Source of the DNA: Eledone cirrhosa
Taxonomy: Eukaryota
Direction: 5' to 3'
Assembly (NCBI GenBank): GCA_964016885.1
Contig: OZ024747.1
Span: 48,360,001 to 48,424,000 of the forward strand
DNA length: 64,000 nucleotides
Under the pieces are notes generated by a model that was not told the DNA's origin, made no database searches, and worked only from the letters and a program-made list of their open reading frames with translations. A program made the translations under genes and the position numbers. Shown here one piece after another: positions 6,929 to 59,510 of the stretch (position 1 is the first letter of the stretch; each line of letters starts with the position of its first letter).

Positions 6929-6929
<1 letters not shown>

Positions 6930-7379
6930 GATATTAAACAAATGGAAACTATATTTATAAAACCATATTTATTTCATTATACATATTTCAGGGATACCAT
7001 ATTAAAAATATGGCATGCCTTCGTCAGATAAAATACAATATATAAACAGTTTTATAAATAATTTTGACGTACCATATTATAAGCGACCATTATATTAGGA
7101 AGCTCTCTGGATAGACAGCTTCCTAATATAATGGTCGCTTATAATATGGTACGTCAAAATTATTTATAAAACTGTTTATATATTGTATTTTATCTGACGA
7201 AGGCATGCCATATTTTTAATATGGTATCCCTGAAATATGTATAATGAAATAAATATGGTTTTATAAATATAGTTTCCATTTGTTTAATATCGTATATCTA
7301 CTCCAAAAACTTGTCGAGTGCTTTATATCAGTTATAAAATATTTACTTGTTGTAACCCAACAATTTTAAATAAAACTTT

Positions 7380-7382
<3 letters not shown>
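6929..7382 (+). mobile_element. (TA)n-embedded palindromic HHR element, family A (Penelope-pLTR/retrozyme-like)
   Basis: ~176-bp matching inverted arms centred at 7110/7111 plus a unique 3' tail 7298-7382; homologous to 47789-48237. Confidence 0.85.
7186..7251 (+). ncRNA. Type I hammerhead ribozyme (mirror copy on minus strand 6970-7035)
   Basis: Stem I TATTTTAT/ATGAAATA; CTGACGA 7194-7200; stem II AGG.C.ATGCCATA/TATGGTAT.C.CCT; GAAA 7232-7235; short stem III; AUA cleavage after 7243. Confidence 0.85.
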
Positions 7383-8388: not shown

Positions 8389-8732
8389 AAAGTTAAACAA
8401 GGTTCAATGAATACATCAAAGAATGAGTTTTACAAAAGATTGGATGCACTCAACAGTAAAAAGGTTTTCCAGAGTTATTAATATTAATTCAAAATATTAA
8501 CAACATAGATATTCTTGTGATCAATTATATTTTATTATACATATTTCAGAGGTACTGAGTTAAGTTCAACAGTACGTCCTCATCAGAAAAAATAAGATGA
8601 TGCTTGACATACCCATGCATCATCTTATTTTATCTGATGAGGACGTACTGTTGAACTTAACTCAGTACCTCTGAAATATGTATAATAAAATATAATTGAT
8701 CACAAGAATATCTGTTTTGTTAATATTTTGAA

Positions 8733-8739
<7 letters not shown>
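8385..8739 (-). mobile_element. (TA)n-embedded palindromic HHR element, family B
   Basis: Inverted arms 8481-8603/8617-8739; tail 8385-8440 recurs in reverse at 33305-33364. Confidence 0.85.
8626..8692 (+). ncRNA. Type I hammerhead ribozyme (mirror copy on minus strand 8528-8594)
   Basis: Stem I TATTTTAT/ATAAAATA (8 bp); CTGATGA 8634-8640; stem II GGA.C.GTACTG/CAGTAC.C.TCT; GAAA 8673-8676; AUA cleavage after 8684. Confidence 0.88.
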
Positions 8740-8805
<66 letters not shown>

Positions 8806-13311: not shown

Positions 13312-13345
13312 GGTCTCTACACTCTCCTTTGGCTCTGCCGCCCAC

Positions 13346-16300
13346 ATGGATGTGTTAAGAGTAGGATGTTTGAATGCACGTGGCCTGGGCTCAACTTGGA
13401 AGCAAGCAAAGCTTCTAAATGACCTCAGGTCATGTAGTATAAATGTAATGGTTATCTGTGAGACTCGAATCAGCGTCGTGCGGCAGCTGGCCCCCACCTT
13501 CGATGACTTTGAGGTGCATGCATCTCTCTGTCAACCTGGAGGTGGGGGTGGGGTTGTCGTACTGCTGCAAAAACACCTGGGTCTTGCCGTACAGGTTGTG
13601 CACTCGGACCCGGAGGGTCGTTTGTTGGTGCTAGACGTTGGCAGTAGTGAAAGTGCGGCCTTGAGACTGGTCGCCGTCTACTCCCCTTTCGGAGCTGAAC
13701 GGCCCGACTTCTTCCAGCGTTTGGAGACTTTTCTGGGAACGTCGCGTTCCCTGCTTCTAGCGGGGGATTGGAATGACATCCTGGATGCACGTTGGGACTA
13801 TGCAGGAGCATGTCCTAATAGAGGGGGGTGTAACAGCCTCAAGGGGTTACTCGACCGTTTTAACTTGGTCGATAGATATCGACTAGATTTTCCAACTGTG
13901 CCAACCTGGACTTGGAGAAACCACAGTGGTCAATCTAGATCGTACTTAGATAGATTCTTAGTTAGAAGTAAGGATAGGGACATATTAAGCTGTCCAGAAA
14001 TGCGCACGGTTGGCTACACGGATCACAAATTAGTGACCTGCGTGGTGAATCTCGAGAAAACACATAGACAGGGTCCCGGTTACTGGAAACTTAATTTGTC
14101 TTTACCGGCAAAAGAGACTTACAGAAACCGGATTAGCAGATTAGTTAAGGAGAGGTTGACGGGTGCAATCGTCAACAACCGATGGTGGGCATCTCTCAAA
14201 AGAGAGATTAGAACAGAATCAATAAATTATAGCAAGATGTTAGCTGCCGATAGGAATAGAAACGAGAAAGAATTAACAGGTAAATTAGAAGAGGCAATCA
14301 AGAGCGAAGATGTGGCCAGAGTGCTGGCATCGAGGACGGCCTTGAACCAGTTTTTCGATGCAAAGCACGAAGGCTGCGTCATTCGAAGTAAAATACGTGC
14401 TCTAGGTAATGAGGGGGCCAAAGCCGTTGGATGGGCCCGCGTGACAGAAGCTAAGAGTGGAAATCGATCCACCATCCGGTCGTTGCAAGACGAAGATGGA
14501 CGGGTGATCCGGGAGCCTAAGCAGATGTGCGAGGCCTTTCAAAGGCACTTTGCCCGATTGTTCGGGGGAGGCGAGGGTCCGGGCGGGGGCGTGGATTTCG
14601 GTCCATACCTCGACGGCCTGCCGCGTCTCTCGTGCGAAGAGTCAGAGTCCTGCGAGGGACCAATCTCGGCTGATGAGATCGGAGATGCGCTGAGCCAATG
14701 CAGCAGACGCAAATCTCCAGGTCTTGATGGTATACCTTACGAATGCCGGTCTTCTTCTCCGAACTCCTCGAAGCGGTCTACTGCAATTGGCAGCAGAACG
14801 GGAGAATTCCTTGTTCTGTAGCCAAAGGCGTAGTCACGCTGGTGAGGAAGGACGAGAACAAGGGGGATAGTATAAATAATTTTCGGCCCATAACCCTGCT
14901 AAACACAGAGTTAAAGATTTTGGCCAAGGTGTTAGCAAAGAGGTTGGCGCTTGTCGTGGGTGGCCTGGTGGGAGATGCGCAGACATGTGCTATCCCATCC
15001 AGGTCCATTCACGATAACCTCCACCTCATGCGAGACATCATAGAGAGGGTTGGCAACAAACCCGGCTTCGGTGGGGCCCTGATCAACTTGGATCAGTCTA
15101 AGGCCTTCGATAGGGTCGACCATGGTTACCTGGATGCGGTGCTAGCGGCGGCTGGGTTCGGTCCTGTTTTCAGAGGCTGGATAACTGCCTTACATAGCAA
15201 CCACATCTGTTCTAGGATCAAGGTGAACGGCTACCTTTCGAAGCCGTTCGAAATCACACGATCCATTTGACAGGGGTGCCCTCTCTCCTCCCTTCTGTAC
15301 GTATTGACTCTCGAGCCTTTACTGAGGAATTTGGAGTTGTTGCAGGGTATTCCCCTGGAACCAGGATTGAGCAAAGCGGTGTCGGCCTACGCCGATGACG
15401 TAACGGTAATGGTATCGACCGACTCGGAGATCGAGGCGATCGGTACCTTACTGGAGGAGTACGAAAGGTTGTCAGGAGCGAAACTGAACCGGGAAAAATC
15501 CATCGGGCTGCAACTCGGAACGTGGAGAGGCAGACCGATGCCTCCTGACGGTGTTGTCGAACACTGGACGGAGGACCCGGTAAAGTTGCTTGGGGTCTGG
15601 TTTGGACCGGACCTCCAGGTGGAAAAGAACTGGAACGAGGTTACGAACAAGGTGTTTGCACTAACCCAGAAATGGGCCAAGTGTAAGCTGTCCCTAAAAG
15701 GCCGGGCGGAGGTGGCGAACATTTACATAGCGTCCGTCACTTACTACCGCCTGACTGTCGTGCCTTGCCCTAAGGAAACACTCACCACCATGGAACGCAT
15801 GCTCTTCCAATTTCTTTGGAAGAAGCGCCCTCCTATGGTGAGAAGATCCATCTGCTGCCAACAACCTTCGAAAGGAGGGCTGGGGATGCCGTGGTTGATG
15901 ATGCGTAGGCACGCATTAAGGCTACGGCACCTACAGGTATTCCTCACTGGTCAACCGGTGTGGGCTCCGTTCGTGAAACGAGCCTTTCCGAGACTCGTCT
16001 CGCTCACCGAGCTACAGTCCTGGGTCAAGCAAAGATCCGGAAAACTGGGAGACTGGCACACTGAGTGTGCTCAGGCGCTCAGGGCTCTCTGGCAAGCGGG
16101 CCAGGCCATCGGTGGAGAATCCACCTCATCATTCTATAGAGGGCTGGTGGCTAGCAGGGGCGATGACACCCTTGGAGAGTCGCTGGACATGGAAGAAGAC
16201 GAACTGGCCAGCCTGTTCGGTAGGACTTTCGGCCCAGGACCAATGGACAACTTCCAGAAGTCACTGGCCTGGCAGTGCTACCGGGGGGCTCTACCCGTTC

Positions 16301-16770
16301 GAGAGAGGCTCTACAGACACGGGCGCCCGGGCAGGGATCCCTCAAAAAAGATTTGCCCTAGATGCGTGCGTCACGAAGAAAGCGTTGCGCACGCATTGGT
16401 GCAATGTCCGGGCGTGGCTGATCTGTGGGGCTACGCCGAACGACTGCTGTCGCGGGTGGCGCCGATTAAATTGACCGCGGAGTCCGTGATGACAATCAAA
16501 CCGCCTCCCCTCTTCACAAAGGAAGCAAAGGCGGTTTTTCTGTGCGTAATAGCCATGTTGAAAGAGGTTGTTTGGTGGACACGATTGAAAGGTCTGAGGT
16601 CAGGCAACTTCCTCTCTGGCCATAGTCTGGTCTACTTCTTCCGATATCACTTCGGAAGAAGGATAAGAATGGAGAGAGAGGTGCTTGGCCGCAGGCAGTT
16701 TTATGAAAGGTGGGTGATAGTGGCGAGAATGGCTCGTGTAAATGGGCCTTCTCTGTATACCATCCTGTAG
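13346..16770 (+). pseudogene. Tx1-like ORF2 (APE-RT-zf), one frameshift and one nonsense codon
   Basis: LNARGL, ICETR, AGDWN, SYLDRF, TDHK (APE); FRPITLLN, LDQSKAFDRV, SI*QGCP (TGA 15268-15270, probably from CGA), AYADD; CPRC...HALVQC; frameshift near 14743. Confidence 0.92.
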
Positions 16771-18742: not shown

Positions 18743-21700
18743 AACGAATACCATAAAGCATTCCATAACGAATACCATAAAGCATTCCGTAACGAATACC
18801 ATAAAGCATTCCATAACGAATACCATAAAGCATTCCGTAACGAATACCATAAAGCATTCCATAACGAATACCATAAAGCATTCCATAACGAATACCATAA
18901 TGCATTCCATAACGAATACCATAAAGCATTCCGTAACGAATACCATAAAGCATTCCATAACGAATACCATAATGCATTCCATAACGAATACCATAAAGCA
19001 TTCCGTAACGAATACCATAATGCATTCCATAACGAATACCATAAAGCATTCCGTAACGAATACCATAAAGCATTCCATAACGAATACCATAATGCATTCC
19101 ATAACGAATACCATAAAGCATTCCGTAACGAATACCATAAAGCATTCCATAACGAATACCATAATGCATTCCATAACGAATACCATAAAGCATTCTGTAA
19201 CGAATACCATAAAGCATTCCATAACGAATACCATAAAGCATTCCATAACGAATACCATAAAGCATTCCATAACGAATACCATAATGCATTCCATAACGAA
19301 TACCATAATGCATTCCATAACGAATACCATAATGCATTCCATAACGAATACCATAATGCATTCCATAACGAATACCATAAAGCATTCCATAACGAATACC
19401 ATAAAGCATTCCATAACGAATACCATAATGCATTCCATAACGAATACCATAATGCATTCCATAACGAATACCATAAAGCATTCCATAACAAATACCATAA
19501 AGCATTCCATAACGAATACCATAATGCATTCCATAACGAATACCATAAAGCATTCCATAACGAATACCATAATGCATTCCATAACGAATACCATAATGCA
19601 TTCCATAACGAATACCATAATGCATTCCATAACGAATACCATAAAGCATTCCATAACGAATACCATAAAGCATTCCATAACGAATACCATAATGCATTCC
19701 ATAACGAATACCATAATGCATTCCATAACGAATACCATAAAGTATTCCATAACGAATACCATAATGCATTCCATAACGAATACCATAATGCATTCCATAA
19801 CGAATACCATAATGCATTCCATAACGAATACCATAAAGCATTCCATAACGAATACCATAATGCATTCCATAACGAATACCATAATGCATTCCATAACGAA
19901 TACCATAAAGCATTCCATAACGAATACCATAATGCATTCCATAACGAATACCATAATGCATTCCATAACGAATACCATAAAGCATTCCATAACGAATACC
20001 ATAAAGCATTCCATAACGAATACCATAATGCATTCCATAACGAATACCATAATGCATTCCATAACGAATACCATAAAGTATTCCATAACGAATACCATAA
20101 TGCATTCCATAACGAATACCATAATGCATTCCATAACGAATACCATAATGCATTCCATAACGAATACCATAAAGCATTCCATAACGAATACCATAATGCA
20201 TTCCATAACGAATACCATAATGCATTCCATAACGAATACCATAAAGCATTCCATAACGAATACCATAATGCATTCCATAACGAATACCATAAAGCATTCC
20301 ATAACGAATACCATAATGCATTCCATAACGAATACCATAAAGCATTCCATAACGAATACCATAAAGCATTCCATAACGAATACCATAATGCATTCCATAA
20401 CGAATACCATAATGCATTCCATAACGAATACCATAAAGCATTCCATAACGAATACCATAAAGCATTCCATAACGAATACCATAATGCATTCCATAACGAA
20501 TACCATAAAGTATTCCATAACGAATACCATAAAGCATTCCATAACGAATACCATAAAGTATTCCATAACGAATACCATAAAACATTCCATAACGAATACC
20601 ATAAAGTATTCCATAACGAATACCATAAAGTATTCCGTAACGAATACCATAATGCATTCCGTAACGAATACCATAAAGTATTCCATAACGAATACCATAA
20701 AGCATTCCATAACGAATACCATAAAGTATTCCGTAACGAATACCATAAAGTATTCCGTAACGAATACCATAAAGTATTCCGTAACGAATACCATAAAGCA
20801 TTCCATAACGAATACCATAAAGTATTCCATAACGAATACCATAAAGTATTCCATAACGAATACCATAAAGTATTCCGTAACGAATACCATAAAGTATTCC
20901 GTAACGAATACCATAAAGTATTCCATAACGAATACCATAAAGTATTCCGTAACGAATACCATAAAGTATTCCATAACGAATACCATAAAGCATTCCATAA
21001 CGAATACCATAAAGCATTCCGTAACGAATACCATAAAGTATTCCGTAACGAATACCATAAAGCATTCCGTAACGAATACCATAAAGTATTCCATAACGAA
21101 TACCATAAAGTATTCCGTAACGAATACCATAAAGTATTCCATAACGAATACCATAAAGCATTCCGTAACGAATACCATAAAACATTCCGCAACGAATACC
21201 ATAAAACATTCCGTAACGAATACCATAAAGCATTCCGTAACGAATACCATAAAGCATTCCATAACGAATACCATAAAGCATTCCGTAACGAATACCATAA
21301 AGCATTCCATAACGAATACCATAAAGCATTCCGTAACGAATACCATAAAGCATTCCATAACGAATACCATAAAGCATTCCATAACGAATACCATAAAACA
21401 TTCCGCAACGAATACCATAAAACATTCCGTAACGAATACCATAAAGCATTCGGCAACGAATACCATAAAGCATTCCGTAACGAATACCATAAAGCATTCC
21501 GTAACGAATACCATAAAACATTCCGCAACGAATACCATAAAGCATTCCGTAACGAATACCATAAAGCATTCCGCAACGAATACCATAAAGCATTCCGTAA
21601 CGAATACCATAAAGCATTCCGTAACGAATACCATAAAGCATTCCGTAACGAATACCATAAAGCATTCTGTAACGAATACCATAAAGCATTCCGCAATGAA

Positions 21701-22212
21701 TACCATAAAGCATTCCGTAACGAATACCATAAAGCATTCCGTAACGAATACCATAAAGCATTCCATAACGAATACCATAAAGCATTCCGTAACGAATACC
21801 ATAAAGCATTCCATAACGAATACCATAAAGCATTCCGTAACGAATACCATAATGCATTCCATAACGAATACCATAAAGCATTCCGCAACGAATACCATAA
21901 AGCATTCCGTAACGAATACCATAAAGCATTCCGTAACGAATACCATAAAGCATTCCGTAACGAATACCATAAAGCATTCCGTAACGAATACCATAAAGCA
22001 TTCCGCAACGAATACCATAAAGCATTCCATAACGAATACCATAAAGCATTCCATAACGAATACCATAAAGCATTCCGCAACGAATACCATAAAACATTCC
22101 ATAACGAATACCATAAAGCATTCCGTAACGAATACCATAAAGTATTCCATAACGAATACCATAATGCATTCCATAACGAATACCATAAAACATTCCGCAA
22201 CGAATACCATAA
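18743..22212. repeat. 24-bp satellite (AACGAATACCATAAAGCATTCCAT), ~145 copies, expanded inside a SINE
   Basis: Constant 24-bp period; flanks 18660-18742 and 22213-22252 are the two halves of a minus-strand SINE. Confidence 0.95.
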
Positions 22213-22739
22213 ACCATTCGATGTTCTAACGACTCTGCCAATTCACCACCTTAAGAGATTTTAGTACAAAGTACTTAATAGAATTTTCTGAGTTTAGTTA
22301 GAGCATTAAGATCAAAAGCTAATTTAGTAATTGTAGACCGTCTTTACAATTCTATCTTAGGTTGTAATAATTTTGCAGACGATATATTCCCGTATATACT
22401 TACAAACACACATGTTGCTGCAGAGGGTGATACTGGTAATGATGATAAAGAAGATGCTATTGCTGTTGCTGTCGTTTGTAATGTTAACTTTTACATTTAC
22501 ATTGGTATATGTACAGCTGTTGCATCTGCTCTGTATGTATGTATGTATGTATGTATGTATGTATGTATGTATGTATGTATGTATGTATGTATGTATGTAT
22601 GTACATAGACACATATACACATACACGCGCACACACACACACACACATAAAGAGGTTGACTTAAGAAGCACTGGGAAAATTTGAAATGTGTGCTTTCCTA
22701 CGCACATATTTATATACACACACACCCATACACACTCAT

Positions 22740-25054: not shown

Positions 25055-25215
25055 CTAGTACATCGTTCCTGTGTCAGTGTTGAACAAAAAGGTGACGTGG
25101 TTGCCTTAACACCGTACGGCATAAATCAGGCTGTCCGTTTGTTTACAAACAGACAAAGCGGGCGTTATAATAAACGTCCGCTAAACTGATACGTACATAT
25201 ATATATGTGTACCTG

Positions 25216-25281
<66 letters not shown>

Positions 25282-25708
25282 TGCTACTGTACGTCTGTAT
25301 ACATATATGTATGTACGTATACATACATACTTACATTTAAGTAAGTGCCGTACTAAGAGTGAGAAATGAAATTTCGTTTCATTCTATTACAACTTATCGT
25401 TTTCGGTACGCCTGGCCGACTGAACTCACTCGATATGCAAATTAGGCTGCTCAGCCGTTAATTTTCATAAGGAAAGTATATACTTTTGAACGTTCAACCA
25501 TCTGGCAGAAGGGTATACGGTGCTGATGATAGCTAAGAAGCTTAAAACTAGTACATCGTTCCTGTGTCAGTGTTGAACAAAAAGGTGACGTGGTTGCCTT
25601 AACACCGTACGGCATAAATCAGGCTGTCCGTTTGTTTACAAACGGACAAAGCGGGCGTTATAATAAACGTCCGCTAAACTGATACGTACATATATATATG
25701 TGTACCTG

Positions 25709-25756
<48 letters not shown>

Positions 25757-25867
25757 TGCTACTGTACGTCTGTATACATATATGTATGTACGTATACATA
25801 CATACTTACATTTAAGTAAGTGCCGTACTAAGAGTGAGAAATAAAATTTCGTTTCATTCTATTACAA

Positions 25868-25872
<5 letters not shown>
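25055..25872 (+). mobile_element. Retrozyme-like tandem repeat (~493-bp unit, ~1.6 copies), family C
   Basis: 25055-25397 repeats at 25548-25872; HHR at the unit junction; octamer at 25435-25442; ends in (TA)n. Confidence 0.85.
25517..25559 (+). ncRNA. Minimal type I hammerhead, core mutated (GAAA read as AAAA)
   Basis: Stem I ACGGTG/CATCGT; CTGATGA 25523-25529; stem II AGCT-AAGA-AGCT; palindromic stem III ACTAGT; GUA site. Confidence 0.7.
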
Positions 25873-26981: not shown

Positions 26982-27082
26982 TAAGATCAAAATATATTGA
27001 TTTAAACATATATGATATGTTGATATGTTGATTTAAAACTGCACTATCCACAAGTGTTTTTAACCTTCATATCATGTCCTCC

Positions 27083-27153
27083 TATTTTATCTGATGACAA
27101 CACAAATGTTATTGCATGATGATATTTGTTTTTGAAATGCGCATAATAAAATA
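27083..27153 (+). ncRNA. Type I hammerhead ribozyme
   Basis: Stem I TATTTTAT/ATAAAATA; CTGATGA 27091-27097; stem II ACAAATGT/ATATTTGT (first pair mismatched); GAAA 27134-27137; palindromic stem III ATGCGCAT; element 26972-27280 lies between (TA)n tracts. Confidence 0.8.
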
Positions 27154-27276
27154 CATGGAACTCATTTAACCATCTTTTGATCTTATATATTATGTATACT
27201 CCAGTCCTACAAATTGTAGAGTGCTTCTTATTCGATATCTGCATTGCTTTATTGTACTACAATAAAACTCACCTCC

Positions 27277-27355
<79 letters not shown>

Positions 27356-31692: not shown

Positions 31693-31975
31693 AATGGCTA
31701 AATAACGTAAATAAAGTATATATGTAAATACAGTATATATATATATATATATATAATTAAGTTAAAAATGTACATCCACATATGTATACTGAAATACTAG
31801 TATGCATATGAATACACACACGTATACATATGTAGATGTACCAAGTTTTTCACTGGTCACTTTACTGTGAGTGTCCAGCTATTCTGTATGTAAACACACA
31901 GACAAACCGGTTTTTAGAGTCATACTGGTTTTTGAGGAAACACCTTTCCTCTATTCTCCAGAAAGCCAGACAAGG

Positions 31976-32020
31976 AATATTGAACTAGTTTCGTTGTTGT
32001 TACAACTCATCAGCAATATT
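31976..32020 (-). ncRNA. Minimal type I hammerhead ribozyme
   Basis: AATATTG-CTGATGA-GTTG TAACAA CAAC-GAAA-CTAG-TT-CAATATT on the minus strand. Confidence 0.9.
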
Positions 32021-32459
32021 TACCTATCTTCCGGCCTTTCTGGAGAATCGTAAAAGCACATATCGTTATATGCTTTTTCTATGAAAATTAGTAGTGGGCA
32101 GACTAATTTGCATAGAGTGTGAGTACGTACCGGTTCAACGGAGACGATAAAAACAAATAACGAAACGAAATTAAATTTCGTTTCGTTTGTAACTCACTTT
32201 TGTATGACTGACGCTTAAACAATTAAGTTAAAAATGTACATCCACATATGTATACTGAAATACTAGTATGCATATGAATACACACACGTATACATATGTA
32301 GATGTACCAAGTTTTTCACTGGTCACTTTACTGTGAGTGTCCAGCTATTCTGTATGTAAACACACAGACAAACCGGTTTTTAGAGTCATACTGGTTTTTG
32401 AGGAAACACCTTTCCTCTATTCTCCAGAAAGCCAGACAAGAAAGGCCGGAAGATAGGTA

Positions 32460-32504
32460 AATATTGCTGATGAGATGTAACAACATCGAAACTAGTTCAA
32501 TATT
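32460..32504 (+). ncRNA. Minimal type I hammerhead ribozyme, compensatory stem II variant
   Basis: AATATTG-CTGATGA-GATG TAACAA CATC-GAAA-CTAG-TT-CAATATT. Confidence 0.9.
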
Positions 32505-32925
32505 CCTTGTCTGGCTTTCTGGAGAATAGAGGAAAGGTGTTTCCTCAAAAACCAGTATGACTCTAAAAACCGGTTTGTCTGTGTGTTTACATACAGAATA
32601 GCTGGACACTCACAGTAAAGTGACCAGTGAAAAACTTGGTACATCTACATATGTATACGTGTGTGTATTCATATGCATACTAGTATTTCAGTATACATAT
32701 GTGGATGTACATTTTTAACTTAATTGTTTAAGCGTCAGTCATACAAAAGTGAGTTACAAACGAAACGAAATTTAATTTCGTTTCGTTATTTGTTTTTATC
32801 GTCTCCGTTGAACCGGTACGTACTCACACTCTATGCAAATTAGTCTGCCCACTACTAATTTTCATAGAAAAAGCATATAACGATATGTGCTTTTACGATT
32901 CTCCAGAAAGGCCGGAAGATAGGTA

Positions 32926-32970
32926 AATATTGCTGATGAGTTGTAACAACAACGAAACTAGTTCAATATT
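32926..32970 (+). ncRNA. Minimal type I hammerhead ribozyme
   Basis: AATATTG-CTGATGA-GTTG TAACAA CAAC-GAAA-CTAG-TT-CAATATT; GUU cleavage after 32963. Confidence 0.9.
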
Positions 32971-33258
32971 CCTTGTCTGGCTTTCTGGAGAATAGAGGAA
33001 AGGTGTTTCCTCAAAAACCAGTATGACTCTAAAAACCGGTTTGTCTGTGTGTTTACATACAGAATAGCTGGACACTCACAGTAAAGTGACCAGTGAAAAA
33101 CTTGGTACATCTACATATGTATACGTGTGTGTATTCATATGCATACTAGTATTTCAGTATACATATGTGGATGTACATTTTTAACTTAATTGTTTAAGCG
33201 TCGGTCATACAAAAGTGAGTTACAAACGAAACGAAATTTAATTTCGTTTCGTTATTTG

Positions 33259-33307
<49 letters not shown>

Positions 33308-33944: not shown

Positions 33945-34074
33945 TGTTATATTTTATATTTTTATATTTTTATATTTTGTTATTGCCTTTTTATTGAGGA
34001 CGCCTTTTTATGTAAACTCCCCCCCATTGTACTTGTCCCACTCTTTGATGCCCTGGTGGCAAATAAAAAGAAAG

Positions 34075-34077
<3 letters not shown>
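33945..34077 (+). mobile_element. Isolated Tx1-family 3' UTR end inside (TATC)n
   Basis: tatgtaaactcccccccattgtacttgtccc...aaataaaaagaaagtt followed by (TATC)n. Confidence 0.8.
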
Positions 34078-34165
<88 letters not shown>

Positions 34166-34166
<1 letters not shown>

Positions 34167-35620
34167 GTACTGACTCTCGAGCCATTACTGCAGAAGTTGG
34201 AGTTGTTGCAGGGCATCCCGATTGAACCAGGACTGCGGAAAGCAGCGTCGGCCTATGCCGACGACGTAACCGTAATGGTGTCGAAAACCTCGGACATCGG
34301 GGTAATCGGCAACCATTTACAGGAATACAAAACGTTGACAGGAGCATGACTAAACCCAAACAAGTCTATCGGTTTGCAGCTCGGCACATGGAGAGGCAAA
34401 CCCATGCCTTCCGACAGTGTCGTTGGACGCTGGACAGAAGGACCGGTGAAATTGCTTGGGGTCTGGTTTGGTCCAGACCTCCAGGTGGACAAGAACTGGG
34501 ACGAGGTCACGGCGAAGGTGTTTGCACTCACCCAGAAGTGGGCTGAGTGTAAACTCTCCTTGAAAGGTCGAGCGGAGGTGGCGAACACTTACATAGCGTC
34601 CGTCATCTACTACCGCTTGACAGTTGTGCCTTGTCCCCGCGAATACCTCACCAAAATGGAACGCCTACTCTTCAAGTTCCTCTGGAAGAAACAGGCTCCA
34701 TTGGTGAGGAGATCCATCTGCTGTCAACACCCTTCTAACGGAGGGCTGGGCATGCCGTGGCTGATGATGCTGAAACACGAGCTGAGGCTACGCCATCTCC
34801 AGGTATTCCTGACCGGCAAACCGGTGTGGCAGTCGTTTGTGAGACAAGCTCTCCCACAACTCGTCTGACTAATAGAGCTGCTGTCCTGGGTCAAGCGAAG
34901 ACCGAAAATGGGTGCCTGGAACCTCGAGTGCCTACAGGCGCTCACAGCCCTCTACCAAGCGGAAACGGCAATCAACGGAGACTCTATAGGGGATTAGTGG
35001 AGGATAAATGCGACGACGTTTTCGGGGAAACTCTAGACATCGAGGAGGACGAACTGACCAGTCTGTTCGGGAGGACTTTCTGTCCAGGGCCTATGGATAA
35101 CTTCCAGAGGTCTCTGGCCTGGCAGTGCTACCGAGGAGCTCTACTAGTTCGAGACAAAATCTACAGGCACGGACGCCCTGGCAGAGATCCTGCCAAAAAG
35201 ACCTGTCCAAGATGCGAGAAGGACATCGAAACCGTTCTGCACGCAATTGTTCAGTGCCCAGGGGTGACCTACCTGTGGAATTATGTCGAACAGCTACTGT
35301 CACGCGTGGGACGCCACCCAGTTGCCAGCCGAGTCCATCGTGAGGATCACCCCGCCGCCTTCATTTAAGAATGAAGGAGAGGCGGTTTTCCTCTGTCTGG
35401 TGGCTATGGCGAAAGAGGTAATATGGTGGACGAGGTTAAAAGGACTGAGAGCAAACACCTTTCTCTCCGGACAACAAATTAGCCCCTTCTTTAAGTACCA
35501 CTTCAGAAGGAAGGTGAGAGTGGAGAGAGAGGTGCTACACCCCAGTAAATTCGCTAAAATGTGGGTGAATGTAGCGAAAATGGCCTGAGTGAATGGGCCT
35601 TCTCTGTATATAAACCTGTA
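34166..35620 (+). mobile_element. 5'-truncated, decayed Tx1-like ORF2 copy (related subfamily)
   Basis: SAYADDVTVMVS, LGVWFGPDLQV, GGLGMPWL, CPRC...HAIVQC; collinear with 15297-16770; starts directly after (TATC)n. Confidence 0.92.
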
Positions 35621-38049: not shown

Positions 38050-40800
38050 AAATTAGTAAATGGCAATAAAGACCTGGGAACAACAGGTGAACAAATCTTG
38101 CTCGACAGGTGTCCCAACATGCTGCAGGTTAAGCCCGGTTATTATTCTATTATTGCAGTCAACTGACAACACTCTAAAAAATTTAAACTTCCTATGAAGC
38201 TTGCTTGCTGGAATGTGCGTACTCTGGTAGATGACAATTTGACACAAAGACAAGAGAGACGAACTACATTGATTGCTCATGAGTTGAAAAGATAGTCATT
38301 GAATATAATAGCTCTCTCTGAAACACGCCTACGGATTGGCACCTCATTGATTATATCTTAGTTAAAAAATGTAATACGAAAGACGTATGTAGTGTGCGCT
38401 CAATGAGAGGAGCAGAGTGCTGGAATGATCATAGACTAACCAGGATCAAACTTAATTTAACTATAACACTCTGGGACTAAAGTACCAAAGAAATTTAATG
38501 TGACAAAGTTCAGATCTTTCGATGATCTCCACAATTTTCGTAGTGCATTGGATATCACACTTGACTCGAGCAGCCCTTAGGACATTTTAAGACAAAAGTA
38601 TTTCAAGCAGCATCTGTATCAGTGGGTGTGAGATCAAGGAGGTCTAATGGCTGGTTTACAGATAGCAACCCCGAAATATGTGATTTACTTAGGAACAAAC
38701 AAAATATTTGTCAAAAACTTCTTTTTCAATAAATCAATCCTAATTGTGATATATCTTATAAGCAACTAAAAAGAAAAGTGAAAAATGCTCTGAGAAATAT
38801 TAAGCAGCAGGGGTGGCACAACAAAGTCAAACAAGCACAAGAAGCAATAGATCGCGAGGACACAAAGGTATTTTTCTCCTTCATTAAGGAAGTGTATGGT
38901 CCACAATCCTCCTCAGTAGCACCTGTAGGAACTGCAGATGGCCAGTCACTCTTGACTGATATTGTCTCCATTTAGAACCGCTGAGTAGAACACTTCTCTG
39001 AACTTCTTAACAGGCCCTCTAATGTTAGCATAAACATTATCGAATCAATGAAAATCTACCTAATTGTAAATGAAATGGCATCCGAACCAAATAGAAATGA
39101 CATTGCTTCTACTGTACAAAAATTAAACAACAATAAATCTCCTGGCCTGGATGGTATTAATCCGAAGGTTCTCTAGTATGGAGGTGAGAAAAGGGTGGAA
39201 TATTTACACATTGTAATACAACATTGTTGGAGGAAGGAGGAAGTACCACAAGACTGGGTTGATGCTATACTGGTCACCCTTTTCAAATCTGGTGCCAAAG
39301 ACCAATGTAGTAATTTTAGGGGCATTTCCCTATTGTCTGTTTTCGACAACGTTCTAGCACGTGTCATTTTGGAATGGCTTAATAAGTCCATAGTGCCGTG
39401 TGTCGTATCAGAGTCACAATGTGGTTTTTGTACGAAAAGAGGCACTAATGATATGATCTTCACAGTCAGACAACTGCAAGAAAAATGTATTGAACAGAAC
39501 CTTGTCATCTACCACTGTTTTGTCAATCTCAGTAACGCGTTCGATACCGTTAATAGAAATTCCCTGTGGTTGGTTCCGTCGAAATTTGGATGCCCTCAAA
39601 AGTTTGTGAATTTATTGAAAGCTCTCCACAAAGGCACGAAAGCCAGAGTTAACTTTGCAGGTACACCCCCTGAGCCTTTTGCAGTAGAAATTGGGGTGAA
39701 ACAAGGAGACCTTGATGCATCCACTCTCTTTGCGATATATTTTGCTGCCATGCTCTATCGTGTTTTCCAGAACCACAATTAAGGGGTGTATCCTACAACA
39801 AGAAATGTCTTCAATCTAGCACGAATGAAATTTAAGACTAAAGTGTTCACCTCACTAATAAGAGATCTTCTGTATGCCAACGACCGTCACCTTGCCAGTC
39901 ATATCGAGAATGGTTTGCAAATATTGATCTCTGCATTTAATTCGGCATGTGATATATTTGGTTTGACCTTAAACCTAAAGAAAACTAGGTTTATATCAAT
40001 CTGCCTCTGGCCAAGTTGTGCACAAACCGAAAATATATGTGAGGAGTAAACTTCTTAAGGTTGTTGAATCATTCATATATCTTGGAAGCACAATAAGTAA
40101 AGATGGAACATTGGATCCAGAAATATCTCTAAGGATTCAAAAGACAGCAAAATATTTTGGTAATCGAGAGTCTCGGGTTTGGTTACAAAGGTATCAAGAT
40201 GGAAACAAATATTTCCGTTTATAGAGCTGTTGTGTTATCTTCCCTTTTGTACTCATCTGAAACTTGAAAATATGCATCAGACTCCTGGAATGATTCCACA
40301 AAAAATATTTACGTCAAATTCTAAAAATAAAATGGAATTCATTCACTCCTGACTCTTATGTTTTAGCTGCGTCTGCTATTTGTTCCATCCAGGCAATAAT
40401 TCTAAAAAAACAACTGTGGTGGTCTGGACATATGGTCATGGTTGACGAACGTATCCCCAAGCAACTATTTTATGGGGGACTTGCTCAGAGTAAAAGGAAG
40501 CAAGCCAAAGAAGGGTTTCAAGGATGAATTGAGGGAGAACTTGAAGAATGTAGGAATCAATAAAAAAAACCCTGGAAAGACTTGCAGTGGATCGCTCTAT
40601 TTGGTGCTCAAAAATATGGGACGGTGTGAAAACGTTTGAGCAAAATAGATTAATGCAAGTAAATATTAAGAAGAATATAAGGAAAAAATAACCAATAAGT
40701 GAATACGAAATTAATGGGACTTTTTCTAATTATACAGTTTGTGGCAAAGTCTGCGTGTCAGAAGCTGGATTTCAATCTCACACGAGAGCACACAATAGGA
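38050..40800 (+). mobile_element. Decayed, internally deleted RTE/BovB-like LINE
   Basis: MKLACWNVRTL (~38193), ALSETR, KSPGLDGI, NFRGISLLS, GVKQG, DLLYAND, FIYLGS, RIPKQLFYG, terminal VCGKVC..HTRAH. Confidence 0.9.
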
Positions 40801-54989: not shown

Positions 54990-56892
54990 CGTTGTTGACC
55001 AAACAATATCTCCCTCAAAACTAGAATCAGAATAATATTCCAGTCTCGAGGCATGGATACATTGAAGCTCCGACGTCTGGTAACTGACTTGGTAGACACC
55101 CGCAAAATTATTAACCACCTTCCCAACAACGAGCCTGAGCACCTCTTTGAATTCCACATGTCTAAACCCGTGAACATGCTTACAAAGTCAGAAAACATTA
55201 CAGCTCCCATAACTTTTGGAAACATATTTACACGCTCAGAGTTGCTGAAGCATAGAACAAACTACCTGCATCAGTTGTTAGCTGTTGAGACAATGCATCC
55301 CTCAAAACTTCCATAGAACAAACTACCTGCATCAGTTGTTAGCTGTCGGGACACTGCATCCCTCAAAACTTCCATAGAACAAACTACCTGCATCAGTTGT
55401 TAGCTGTCGAGACAATGCATCCCTCAAAACTTCTATAGAACAAACTACCTGCATCAGTTGTTAGCTGTCGGGGCACTGCATCCCTCAAAACTTCCATAGA
55501 ACAAACTACCTGCATCAGTTGTTAGCTGTCGGGACACTGCATCCTTCAAAACTTCCATAGAACAAACTACCTGCATCAGTTGTTAGCTGTCGAGACACTG
55601 CATCCTTCAAAACTTCCATAGAACAAACTACCTGCATCAGTTGTTAGCTGTCGGAACACTGCATCCTTTAAAACTTCCATAGAACAAACTACCTGCATCA
55701 GTTGTTAGCTGTCGGGACACTACATCCTTCAAAACTTTCATAGAACAAACTACCTGCATCAGTTGTTAGCTGTCGGGACACTGCATCCTTCAACACTTCC
55801 ATAGAACAAACTACCTGCATCAGTTGTTAGCTGTCGAGACAATGCATCCCTCAAAACTTCTATAGAACAAACTACCTGCATCAGTTGTTAGCTGTCGGGA
55901 CACTGCATCCTTCAAAACTTCCATAGAACAAACTACCTGCATCAGTTGTTAGCTGTCGGGACACTGCATCCTTTAAAACTTCCATAGAACAAACTACCTG
56001 CATCAGTTGTTAGCTGTCGGGACACTGCATCCTTCAAAAGATCCATAGAACAAACTACCTGCATCAGTTGTTAGCTGTCGGGACACTGCATCCTTCAAAA
56101 CTTCCATAGAACAAACTACCTGCATCAGTTGTTAGCTGTCGGGACACTACATCCTTCAAAACTTCCATAGAACAAACTACCTGCATCAGTTGTTAGCTGT
56201 CGGGACACTGCATCCTTCAAAACTTCCATAGAACAAACTACCTGCATCAGTTGTTAGCTGTCGGGACACTACATCCTTCAAAACTTCCATAGAACAAACT
56301 ACCTGCATCAGTTGTTAGCTGTCGGGACACTGCATCCTTCAAAACTTCCATAGAACAAACTACCTGCATCAGTTGTTAGCTGTCGGGACACTACATCCTT
56401 CAAAACTTCCATAGAACAAACTACCTGCATCAGTTGTTAGCTGTCGGGACACTGCATCCTTCAACACTTCCATAGAACAAACTACCTGCATCAGTTGTTA
56501 GCTGTCGAGACACTGCATCCTTCAAAACTTCCATAGAACAAACTACCTGCATCAGTTGTTAGCTGTCGGGACACTGCATCCTTCAACACTTCCATAGAAC
56601 AAACTACCTTCATCAGTTGTTAGCTGTCGAGACGCTGCATCCTTCAAAACGTCCATAGAACAAACTACCTGCATCAGTTGTTAGCTGTCGAGACGCTGCA
56701 TCCTTCAAAACGTCCATGCTTCCCGAAATTCGCGAACACTACACCTGATATTCCGCCTCCATACACACAAAGGCATGCATTTGTGTGTACATCATGACTC
56801 ATACATTGTTCACTTTACTGACATTTGTACAGGCACCTTTGATGAGTTGTAGTGCATCTGAGCATTGTAAACAATAATTTTCATTATTATTT
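54990..56892 (+). mobile_element. CR1-like LINE 3' end containing a tandem expansion
   Basis: TLKLRRLVTDLVDTRKII...LFEF / RVAEA*NKLPASVVSCRDTASFK-like terminus; tail ending aataattttcattattatt. Confidence 0.7.
55251..56714. repeat. 61-bp tandem repeat, ~24 copies
   Basis: catagaacaaactacctgcatcagttgttagctgtcgggacactgcatccttcaaaacttc. Confidence 0.95.
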
Positions 56893-57327: not shown

Positions 57328-57391
57328 TAGTAGTAGTAACAGTGGCAGTACAAATATAGACGTTGTAAGAGGGGTTAAGGGTCATTGAAGC

Positions 57392-59510
57392 TGTTACAGT
57401 AACTGTTACAGTTACTGTAACAGTAACTGTAACAGTTACTGTTATACTTACAGTTACTGTTACAGTTACTGTTACAGTTACTGTAACAGTAACTGTAACA
57501 GTAACAGTTACTGTTATACTTACAGTTACTGTTACAATTACTGTTACAGTTACTGTAACTGTAACAGTAACTGTAAGTATAACAGTTACTGTTACAGTAA
57601 CTGTAACAGTAACTGTAACAGTAACTGTTATAGTTACTGTAACTGTAACAGTTACTGTTACAGTAACTGTAACAGTTACTGTTACAGTTACTGTAACTGT
57701 AACAGTTACTGTTACAGTAACTGTAACAGTTACTGTTATACTTACAGTTACTGTTACAGTAACTGTAACAGTAACTGTAACAGTAACTGTAACAGTAACT
57801 GTAACAGTAACTGTAACAGTTACTGTAACAGTAACTGTTACAGTAACTGTAACAGTAACTGTAACAGTAACTGTAACAGTTACTGTAACAGTAACTGTAA
57901 CAGTTACTGTTACAGTAACTGTAACAGTTACTGTAACTGTAACAGTTACTGTTATACTTACAGTTACTGTTACAGTTACTGTAACTGTAACAGTTACTGT
58001 TACAGTTACTGTTACAGTAACTGTTACAGTTACAGTAACTGTAACAGTAATTGTAACAGTAACTGTAAGTATAACAGTAACTGTTACAGTTACTGTTACA
58101 GTAACTGTTACAGTTACTGTAACTGTAACAGTTACTGTTACAGTAACTGTAACAGTAACTGTTACAGTTACTGTTACAGTTACAGTAACTGTAACAGTAA
58201 CAGTAACAGTAACTGTAACAGTAACTGTAACAGTAACTGTAACAGTAACTGTAACAGTTACTGTAACAGTAACTGTTACAGTTACTGTAACTGTAACAGT
58301 TACTGTTACAGTAACTGTAACAGTTACTGTTACAGTTACTGTTACAGTTACTGTTACAGTTACTGTTACAGTTACTGTAACAGTAACTGTAACAGTTACT
58401 GTTACAGTAACTGTAACAGTAACTGTAACAATAACTGTAACAGTTACTGTAACAGTAACTGTTACAGTAACTGTAACAGTAACTGTAACAGTAACTGTAA
58501 CAGTTACTGTAACAGTAACTGTAACAGTTACTGTTACAGTAACTGTAACAGTTACTGTTATACTTACAGTTACTGTTACAGTTACTGTAACTGTAACAGT
58601 TACTGTTACAGTTACTGTTACAGTAACTGTTACAGTTACAGTAACTGTAACAGTAATTGTAACAGTAACTGTAAGTATAACAGTAACTGTTACAGTTACT
58701 GTTACAGTAACTGTTACTGTTACAGTTACTGTTACTGTTACTGTTACAGTTACTGTAACAGTAACAGTAACTGTAACAGTAACTGTTACAGTTACTGTTA
58801 CAGTTACAGTAACTGTAACAGTAACAGTAACAGTAACTGTAACAGTAACTGTAACAGTAACTGTAACAGTAACTGTAACAGTTACTGTAACAGTAACTGT
58901 TACAGTTACTGTTACAGTAACTGTAACAGTAACTGTAACAGTAACTGTAACAGTAACTGTTACAGTTACTGTAACTGTAACAGTTACTGTTACAGTAACT
59001 GTAACAGTTACTGTTATACTTACAGTTACTGTTACAGTAACTGTAACAGTAACTGTAACAATAACTGTAACAGTTACTGTAACAGTAACTGTTACAGTAA
59101 CTGTAACAGTAACTGTAACAGTAACTGTAACAGTTACTGTAACAGTAACTGTAACAGTTACTGTTACAGTAACTGTAACAGTTACTGTAACTGTAACAGT
59201 TACTGTTATACTTACAGTTACTGTTACAGTTACTGTAACTGTAACAGTTACTGTTACAGTTACTGTTACAGTAACTGTTACTGTTACAGTTACTGTTACT
59301 GTTACTGTTACAGTTACTGTAACTGTAACAGTAACTGTGACAGTTACTGTTACAGTTACTGTTACTGTTACAGTTACTGTAACAGTAACTGTTACAGTTA
59401 CAGTAACTGTAACAGTTACTGTTACAGTAACTGTAACAGTAACAGTAACAGTAACAGTAACTGTAACAGTAACTGTTACAGTTATAGTTACTGTTCCTGT
59501 TACTGTTACT
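57392..59510. repeat. Self-complementary hexamer satellite (GTWACW)n, ~2.1 kb
   Basis: Mixture of gtaact/gttaca/gttact/gtaaca; same consensus on both strands. Confidence 0.95.

Follow-up and report, generated by a model that had tools for sequence, protein, structure and literature searches.

How does a non-coding tandem repeat that carries hammerhead ribozymes come to lie within a TA microsatellite as two arms pointing away from each other? This question is raised by a locus near the middle of a 64,000-nucleotide stretch of the Eledone cirrhosa genome (contig OZ024747.1; the whole stretch is hereafter termed the window). The preliminary description of this DNA reported an inverted array of 466-bp units with three hammerheads, in which about 1.5 minus-sense and about 1.8 plus-sense units join 5'-to-5' near position 32440 and each 3' end passes into (TA)n, and our analysis recovered each of these features (Table 1). 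With unit positions numbered from the first base past the predicted cut (u1 = 32498), the period is 466 nt in both arms; the short-end arm runs from u9 to u466 and then from u1 to u228, the long-end arm comprises u408-466, u1-466 and u1-302, and the two are ~100% complementary over 694 nt, their joint falling between both strands of the extended stem I. The 466-nt unit has no coding frame and no reverse transcriptase (RT) or GIY-YIG frame, its longest ATG frame being 50 aa; it folds with a z score of -11.8 (0 of 100 shuffles folded as well), and the GC content of window positions 32001-33000 is 0.36. At u335-342 (window 32832-32839, 33298-equivalent) it holds the octamer motif ATGCAAAT. This motif is retained in a 62% identical sister family and, since it is mutated in a young expanding haplotype, is probably not essential.

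Table 1. Coordinates of the features of the inverted array (window positions) and of two related fusions (locus positions)
Feature	Position	Strand	Remarks
Left (TA)n target tract	31734..31754	none
Short-end arm	31755..32440	minus	686 nt, 1.47 units; 5' end u9, 3' end u228 (31755) at TA
Type I hammerhead 3	31976..32020	minus	core 32013; stem I 7 bp, stem II 5 bp, ACTAGT stem III, GUU triplet
5'-to-5' arm joint	32439..32440	none	2-nt microhomology
Long-end arm	32439..33265	plus	827 nt, 1.77 units; 5' end u408, 3' end u302 (33265) at TA
5'-most 59 nt of plus arm	32439..32497	plus	other haplotype's compensatory stem II pair (32475, 32486)
Type I hammerhead 1	32460..32504	plus	core 32467; predicted cut after 32497
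Full 466-nt unit, cut to cut	32498..32963	plus	non-coding, strongly folded
Type I hammerhead 2	32926..32970	plus	core 32933; predicted cut after 32963
Tail u229-302, between the fixed 3' ends	33192..33265	plus	contains a 13-bp hairpin (33225-33253)
Right (TA)n target tract	33266..33305	none
Retrozyme-PLE fusions	L113:2920-5390; L147:4017-4265		template switch or deletion

All three hammerheads share the 7-bp stem I and the ACTAGT palindrome noted earlier, and the predicted plus-strand cuts are indeed spaced by 466 nt. Stem I continues via internal loops to about 30 bp, and stem II consists of 5 bp and a 4-nt loop, with a G-C pair immediately past the core. The Rfam model Hammerhead_HH9 matched 3 of 3 hammerheads (E values of 4.8e-7 to 1.1e-6) at 36.5-37.7 bits, under its gathering score of 52; Rfam matches to miRNAs and sRNAs were of low complexity and far under threshold, and were discarded. 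The label "minimal" given to these ribozymes had to be abandoned because of the dimensions of stem II. According to PMC4209133 (cited, like the other papers below, for the accessible portion of its text), the minimal form has a helix II of 7-8 bp, a helix I of 4-5 bp and an extra unpaired base before helix II, while the canonical metazoan type I ribozyme has a helix I of ~6 bp, a helix II of ~4 bp and a helix III of 1-2 bp with a palindromic loop, completed as a dimer, and a tertiary contact between loops 1 and 2. With a helix II of 5 bp, a helix I of 7 bp and no extra base before helix II, the window ribozyme is, as judged from its helices, a canonical metazoan type I hammerhead. Two copies were predicted to co-fold through the ACTAGT palindrome, in agreement with the earlier statement that such hammerheads act as dimers in tandem transcripts, and the ribozyme is predicted to cut in dimeric form, releasing unit-length RNA. 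A caution comes from Xenopus, where of nine predicted retrozymes only one proved able to cleave in vitro (bioRxiv 10.64898/2026.07.22.740005).

The pattern of variation indicates selection on the ribozyme. Of the 309 hammerheads found in 119 loci, 294 have a fully paired stem II, in one of three versions connected by a compensatory swap at u444/u455, and the catalytic core is free of recurrent alleles among those listed (86 alleles, each in at least 2 of 71 loci). Predicted pairs are broken by 17 recurrent alleles, where the null expectation averaged 30.4 (0 of 2000 permutations), the fold used being that predicted from one family member. Singleton variants are hardly depleted in the ribozyme (0.33% vs 0.41%). 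The cleavage triplet, at u466, is GUU in the youngest subfamily, which includes the window locus, and GUC in older subfamilies.

The insert is one of thousands of young copies dispersed through a microsatellite-rich genome of 3.0 Gb. A search with the unit returned 201 matches, drawn from 40 of 512 candidates; those of full length were 98-100% identical, and subfamilies range down to ~88% identity. Exact patterns for the two hammerhead haplotypes occurred 5,113 and 4,010 times, and exact joints between the long end and TA 1,908 times; those between the short end and TA numbered 415 on the forward strand, to which this count was confined as overlapping matches inflate the reverse counts. Reversed-pattern controls gave 0 in every case. 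Across loci the unit measures 466-470 nt, with 1-31 units per locus. A search of 50,697 phage records for the family gave no match. The window also carries, at 25055-25870, a sister retrozyme family that is 62-64% identical to the unit and has a 493-nt period, a degenerate hammerhead core, the same ACTAGT palindrome and an expanded (TA)n inside the unit; it ends in TA at the long-end-equivalent position and occurs in L091 and L092 too. Large minisatellites occupy 18743-22219 (24-bp period), 55251-56717 (61 bp) and 57391-59482 (12 bp).

Of the 119 loci analysed for their insertion anatomy, 39 had been selected as the best matches to the unit and 80 through a single end pattern (a TA joint); L119, a segmental duplicate, was excluded, and in L101, L143, L057 and L060 the unrelated extra arms were left out of account. 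The preliminary description had proposed to check copy number and permuted endpoints. Copies number in the thousands and their 5' ends are scattered over the unit, but the 3' ends are not permuted, being fixed at two unit positions, u~228-233 ("short") and u~302 ("long"), with a tail of 69-74 nt between them. Among the 118 loci, 83 combined a short with a long end, 1 (L102, the sole true case) had two short ends and 0 had two long ends, while the others were one-ended (n = 24), odd (n = 6) or cut off (n = 4). Hence, 83 of the 84 loci with both ends typed are of the mixed kind, 11 of these 83 having a mini arm. Loci picked by their long end (n = 57) comprised 42 mixed and 0 long-plus-long cases and, when loci were anchored on one end, mixed pairs accounted for 42/42 and 15/15 of those in which the second end was typed. 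On contig C1 (0-145.6 Mb), pairing 100 long and 45 short ends by coordinates only gave, for outward pairs of 10 kb or less, 20 mixed, 1 short-plus-short and 1 long-plus-long pair, the last being two separate insertions.

The recurrence of this asymmetric design bears directly on the fear that the inversion is an assembly fold-back or, alternatively, a DNA-level inverted duplication. The almost complete complementarity of the arms fits such an origin, and the sequence used is that of the assembly. However, the outer ends and flanks differ between the arms, the joint is off-centre and the arms show two haplotype differences. More than 9,100 exact hammerhead cores exist genome-wide and, because 83 loci of the assembly show this design, with joints that differ, we rule this origin out, regarding it as hardly credible; the locus is not a fold-back.

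The arms of a locus meet in various ways, 32 of 71 joints overlapping by 1-8 nt and the others being blunt or containing filler, and short and long arms are of similar length (medians 467 and 531, respectively; P = 0.96). Except for 16 boundaries, all outer boundaries in the 119 loci lie within 25 nt of TA, a figure that is partly built in by the 80 loci picked by their TA-joint pattern. Target-site duplications were seen in 13 of 61 loci versus 8-13 in shuffled pairs, that is, without excess, TA tracts masking such duplications. No LTR layout was present in the 119 loci. One locus, L145, is one-armed and has an identical non-TA sequence of ~45 nt on both flanks, resembling a long target duplication.

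Could a LINE enzyme of the L1/Tx1-like kind have produced the inversion by twin priming? Remnants of APE-RT LINEs exist in the window and the microhomology at joints would suit such a process. Twin priming, however, yields one fixed 3' end and an internal, variable second end, whereas here both outer ends are fixed, poly(A) is absent and the pattern is like that of local Penelope-like elements (PLEs); we therefore regard a LINE origin as very improbable. The broken LINE copies, with APE endonuclease, RT and zf-RVT domains, lie at 13313-16770, 34038-35618 and 39177-39782.

Inversion together with fixed ends is a known signature of Penelope-like retrotransposition, a connection absent from the preliminary description. 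According to PMC8557442, PLE insertions are truncated at the 5' end and partially tandem, include an inverted copy and bear a tail on one side only. In experiments with a purified PLE, both strands of AT-rich DNA were cut and extended, and synthesis began at two internal sites of the RNA, which delimit the tail; ribozyme cleavage was dispensable, and an anole PLE preferred unprocessed RNA in vitro (PMC11167929). The genome studied here contains 10,595 GIY-YIG candidates, with frames combining RT and GIY-YIG of up to 938 aa, a CxxC linker and copies 97-98% identical. We call these PLEs Neptune-type on the basis of the CxxC linker as described in PMC8557442, and not of a tree. Two RT plus GIY-YIG families end in TA and have long and short ends of their own, 65 and ~40 nt apart, and two-armed copies of both families have one long and one short end each. 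The local Neptune-type PLEs bear degenerate hammerhead cores with an ACCGGT palindrome. The 938-aa open frame (L081:3809-6622, minus strand) belongs to a young PLE family with a 65-nt tail and 97-98% amino-acid identity among copies, and its protein is a candidate active enzyme. Two tiny two-armed elements (L049 and L099) consist solely of the end region of the L087 family, with long and short ends, and window 48878-49294 matches the end region of the L087/L095 Neptune-type family. Short elements with hammerhead-like motifs are found at window 6929-7382, 8400-8740 and 27000-27280, the first two being inverted pairs; they match the PLE-containing loci L085, L067/L078 and L086.

A closer kinship with PLEs is conceivable: instead of an independent retrozyme, the units would be pLTRs that had come loose from an autonomous PLE and were passively copied in cis as its 5'-truncated ends. 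Indeed, hammerheads and tails are present in pLTRs, to which the retrozymes of Xenopus show homology (bioRxiv 10.64898/2026.07.22.740005), and our screen, which found no pLTR homologous to the unit, covered 40 GIY-YIG loci of the 10,595 candidates. Nevertheless, in 0 of 119 loci did a unit run upstream into a PLE reading frame, and the units are joined directly unit to unit, in up to 31 copies, which makes this origin unlikely. As for a partner PLE, the search by pLTR homology returned, in the 40 loci, only low-complexity matches, one copy of the window family inserted in L091 and a 62-64% identical sister retrozyme. In two of the 119 loci (L113 and L147), a retrozyme arm is fused directly, without TA, to one Neptune-type family, and L147 pairs two long ends; these fusions were not retained as proof of a partner, as a deletion between neighbours would also explain them.

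Overall, we consider it probable that an animal non-LTR retrozyme is represented here by a young copy, which the reverse transcriptase and GIY-YIG endonuclease of an autonomous PLE likely wrote into the TA microsatellite. In the mechanism that we propose, (i) the GIY-YIG endonuclease would cut both strands of the TA tract, (ii) each freed DNA 3' end would act as primer at an internal site of the RNA, u~228-233 for one end and u~302 for the other, (iii) both primings would use the same RNA or RNAs of one source, (iv) both cDNAs would extend past the site of ribozyme cleavage and terminate at varying positions, (v) the cDNA ends would be joined via microhomology or short filler, and (vi) the tandem arms might later grow or be shuffled through unequal exchange. 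Against this explanation count the 30 of 118 loci in which the second end is unrecognisable or odd, the short-plus-short locus L102, a tail longer than that of published PLEs, target-site duplications no commoner than in controls, the GUU triplet of the youngest subfamily, the weak depletion of singletons in the ribozyme and the absence of a homologous pLTR from the 40 GIY-YIG loci.

Which RNA served as template is a separate matter. Diagnostic sites differ by 0.9% between the arms of one locus versus 27.7% between loci (n = 58), and in 8 of these 58 loci both arms carry an allele absent from every other locus; the arms of a locus thus share a haplotype and would therefore derive from one RNA or one source array. 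An apparent enrichment of 5' ends at the cut site (18 vs 6.9) disappeared after exact end extension (3/186 vs 1.6 expected), with 11 ends in u1-20 versus 8.0 expected. Because 5' ends are not piled up there, the template would have been continuous across the cut site, being either a circularised monomer or an uncleaved multimeric transcript, each of which we place a little short of an even chance. The 5' ends are enriched at u205-240 (28/191 vs ~15), an interval chosen after looking at the data; a return to the priming site accounts for the excess no better than the hairpins located there.

The first possibility is that a PLE enzyme at both DNA ends went repeatedly round one 466-nt RNA circle formed by self-cleavage and re-ligation. 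In the youngest long loci both arms are uniform, 18/18, 24/24 and 6/6 complete units being free of substitutions; 47 distinct majority haplotypes occur among 56 loci; a private allele is fixed in all units of 9 of 61 loci, spanning both arms in 5; and the shared minor alleles of old long arrays recur periodically within a single arm, the pattern predicted for later duplication. The absence of 5'-end enrichment at the cut site points the same way, and in coral, mussel and axolotl the RNA of retrozymes is predominantly circular (PMC7229834). On the other hand, haplotypes switch within an arm in the window locus, L031, L138, L204 and L198, and L198 has 7 minor alleles common to both arms. In the window, the haplotype 444A+455T, known in other loci, is present in the 59 nt at the 5' end of the plus arm but not in the other two hammerheads, and one homogeneous 466-nt circle therefore cannot explain the whole insert. 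Accordingly, of the earlier proposal of a recent insertion from a rolling or circular template, the youth of the insert and its making from RNA stand, but not a homogeneous circle as its only source. Moreover, a homogeneous 468-nt haplotype occupies 7 loci, one with 17+8 copies, meaning that a long linear source exists, and the argument that homogeneous arrays could not stem from a linear source fails. The loci of this haplotype are long, with 1, 6, 8, 25, 2 and 8 copies besides the ascertained 19, versus a median of 2 copies in 27 position-ordered loci, which fits inheritance of length from the source array. The in vitro preference of the anole PLE (PMC11167929) also speaks against a circle.

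These same observations favour the second possibility, a multi-unit transcript of an existing array that was never cleaved, the ribozyme being dispensable for insertion. Arrays are mosaic, with alleles in both arms in L198 and, for 7 alleles, in 5 other loci; array length is linked to lineage; and PLEs offer a precedent (PMC11167929). Yet minor alleles are seldom common to both arms, the unit order of the arms in L198 and L041 could not be matched at any one offset, and selection on the ribozyme would be left unexplained. Partly shared alleles, of which 62 were spread over 20 of 75 loci (vs 1.2 expected), do not refute a circle, as in long arrays most of them are periodic and lie in one arm only; haplotype switches were not enriched at the cut site (1/14 vs 0.76). 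Circle and uncleaved multimer are thus about evenly balanced, each falling just below the halfway mark in our estimation. The fullest version of the circle, in which a dimeric Penelope enzyme rolling-circle-copies one ribozyme-made RNA circle from both TA-cut ends, with starts ~70 nt apart, is offered tentatively and on balance is doubtful. Each insertion would then be a back-to-back pair of concatemers copied from one molecule, a second circle being entered only occasionally.

In the accessible literature, both the way in which retrozymes re-enter the genome and the reason for the inverted, one-tailed insertions of PLEs are open. In the present family, the substrate is small and non-coding, is represented by thousands of nearly identical copies and has two mapped start sites, one per DNA end (83/84), and candidate young Neptune-type enzymes are encoded in the same genome, so that mobilisation by PLEs is testable in vitro, as are double-ended priming and the choice between circle and multimer as template. 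If double-ended rolling-circle copying were true, the family would provide genomic evidence for target-primed reverse transcription that is double-ended and templated by circular RNA, and would explain the tandem arrays of retrozymes together with the inverted, one-tailed structure of PLEs.

Among known systems, the nearest are the animal non-LTR retrozymes, which PMC7229834 (Cervera and de la Pena 2020) defines, showing their circles and naming PLEs as likely mobilisers, and which Li, Clavereau and Pollet (2026; bioRxiv 10.64898/2026.07.22.740005) tie to pLTRs. Like the window family, they are non-coding tandems of a few hundred nucleotides and low GC, with one type I hammerhead per unit and thousands of dispersed copies, and they coexist with PLEs, named as likely mobilisers in both papers; correspondingly, we found a type I hammerhead in each tandem unit, dispersed multimers, absence of coding capacity and a GC content below 50%. 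The unit, at 466-470 nt, is just over the 150-450 bp given in PMC7229834 and within the 51-972 bp of the 2026 preprint. Animal non-LTR retrozymes also have no LTR/PBS/PPT layout, and their target-site duplication, where there is one, exceeds 4 bp. For such retrozymes the accessible portions of these two papers describe neither the two-armed inversion nor the two fixed 3' ends nor the (TA)n targeting of the window family; in the window family, cleavage is predicted and circles are putative. In Xenopus, 24 of 57 retrozyme families match transposable elements, nearly all PLEs, whereas the window family had no pLTR homologue in the 40 loci. The literature covered, with few subscription journals and no supplements, describes no two-armed long/short rule for a retrozyme, and the accessible text of PMC11722881 and PMC9977147 adds nothing further on such a layout.

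Plant LTR retrozymes (as presented in PMC7229834 and the preprint) are likewise non-autonomous and hammerhead-bearing, with a strongly folded unit RNA, but have a type III hammerhead, LTRs, PBS/PPT, a 4-bp target-site duplication and Gypsy machinery; the window family has neither their LTR layout nor their type III ribozyme. In its mode of insertion the window family resembles the EN+ Neptune-type PLEs (Craig et al. 2021, PMC8557442; Frangieh et al. 2024, PMC11167929), with which it shares fixed 3' ends, variable 5' truncation and partial tandems, an inverted 5'-joined copy (84 of 118 loci having two outward typed ends), a tail at one end (83 of 84 loci), two RT start sites and an AT-rich or microsatellite target, the last owing in part to the choice of loci by TA joints. 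It differs from them in that the unit contains no RT plus GIY-YIG frame, as an autonomous PLE would, and in its whole-unit tandems of up to 31 copies; its tail of 69-74 nt compares with 30-40 nt for the published PLE tail and 65 nt in a local PLE family, and its hammerhead is canonical, in contrast to the degenerate, ACCGGT-bearing cores of the local Neptune-type PLEs. The N-terminal EN+ clades, in the accessible text of PMC8557442, are without canonical hammerheads, whereas the window family has one. The Chlamys MRC1-type elements of the same paper are, like the window family, non-autonomous dependants of PLEs with head-to-tail multicopy insertions, although their 3' end resembles that of the autonomous partner. 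The element class and its link to PLEs have thus already been proposed in print, and the gain from the present family is not a new class but mechanistic detail on how such elements are inserted.
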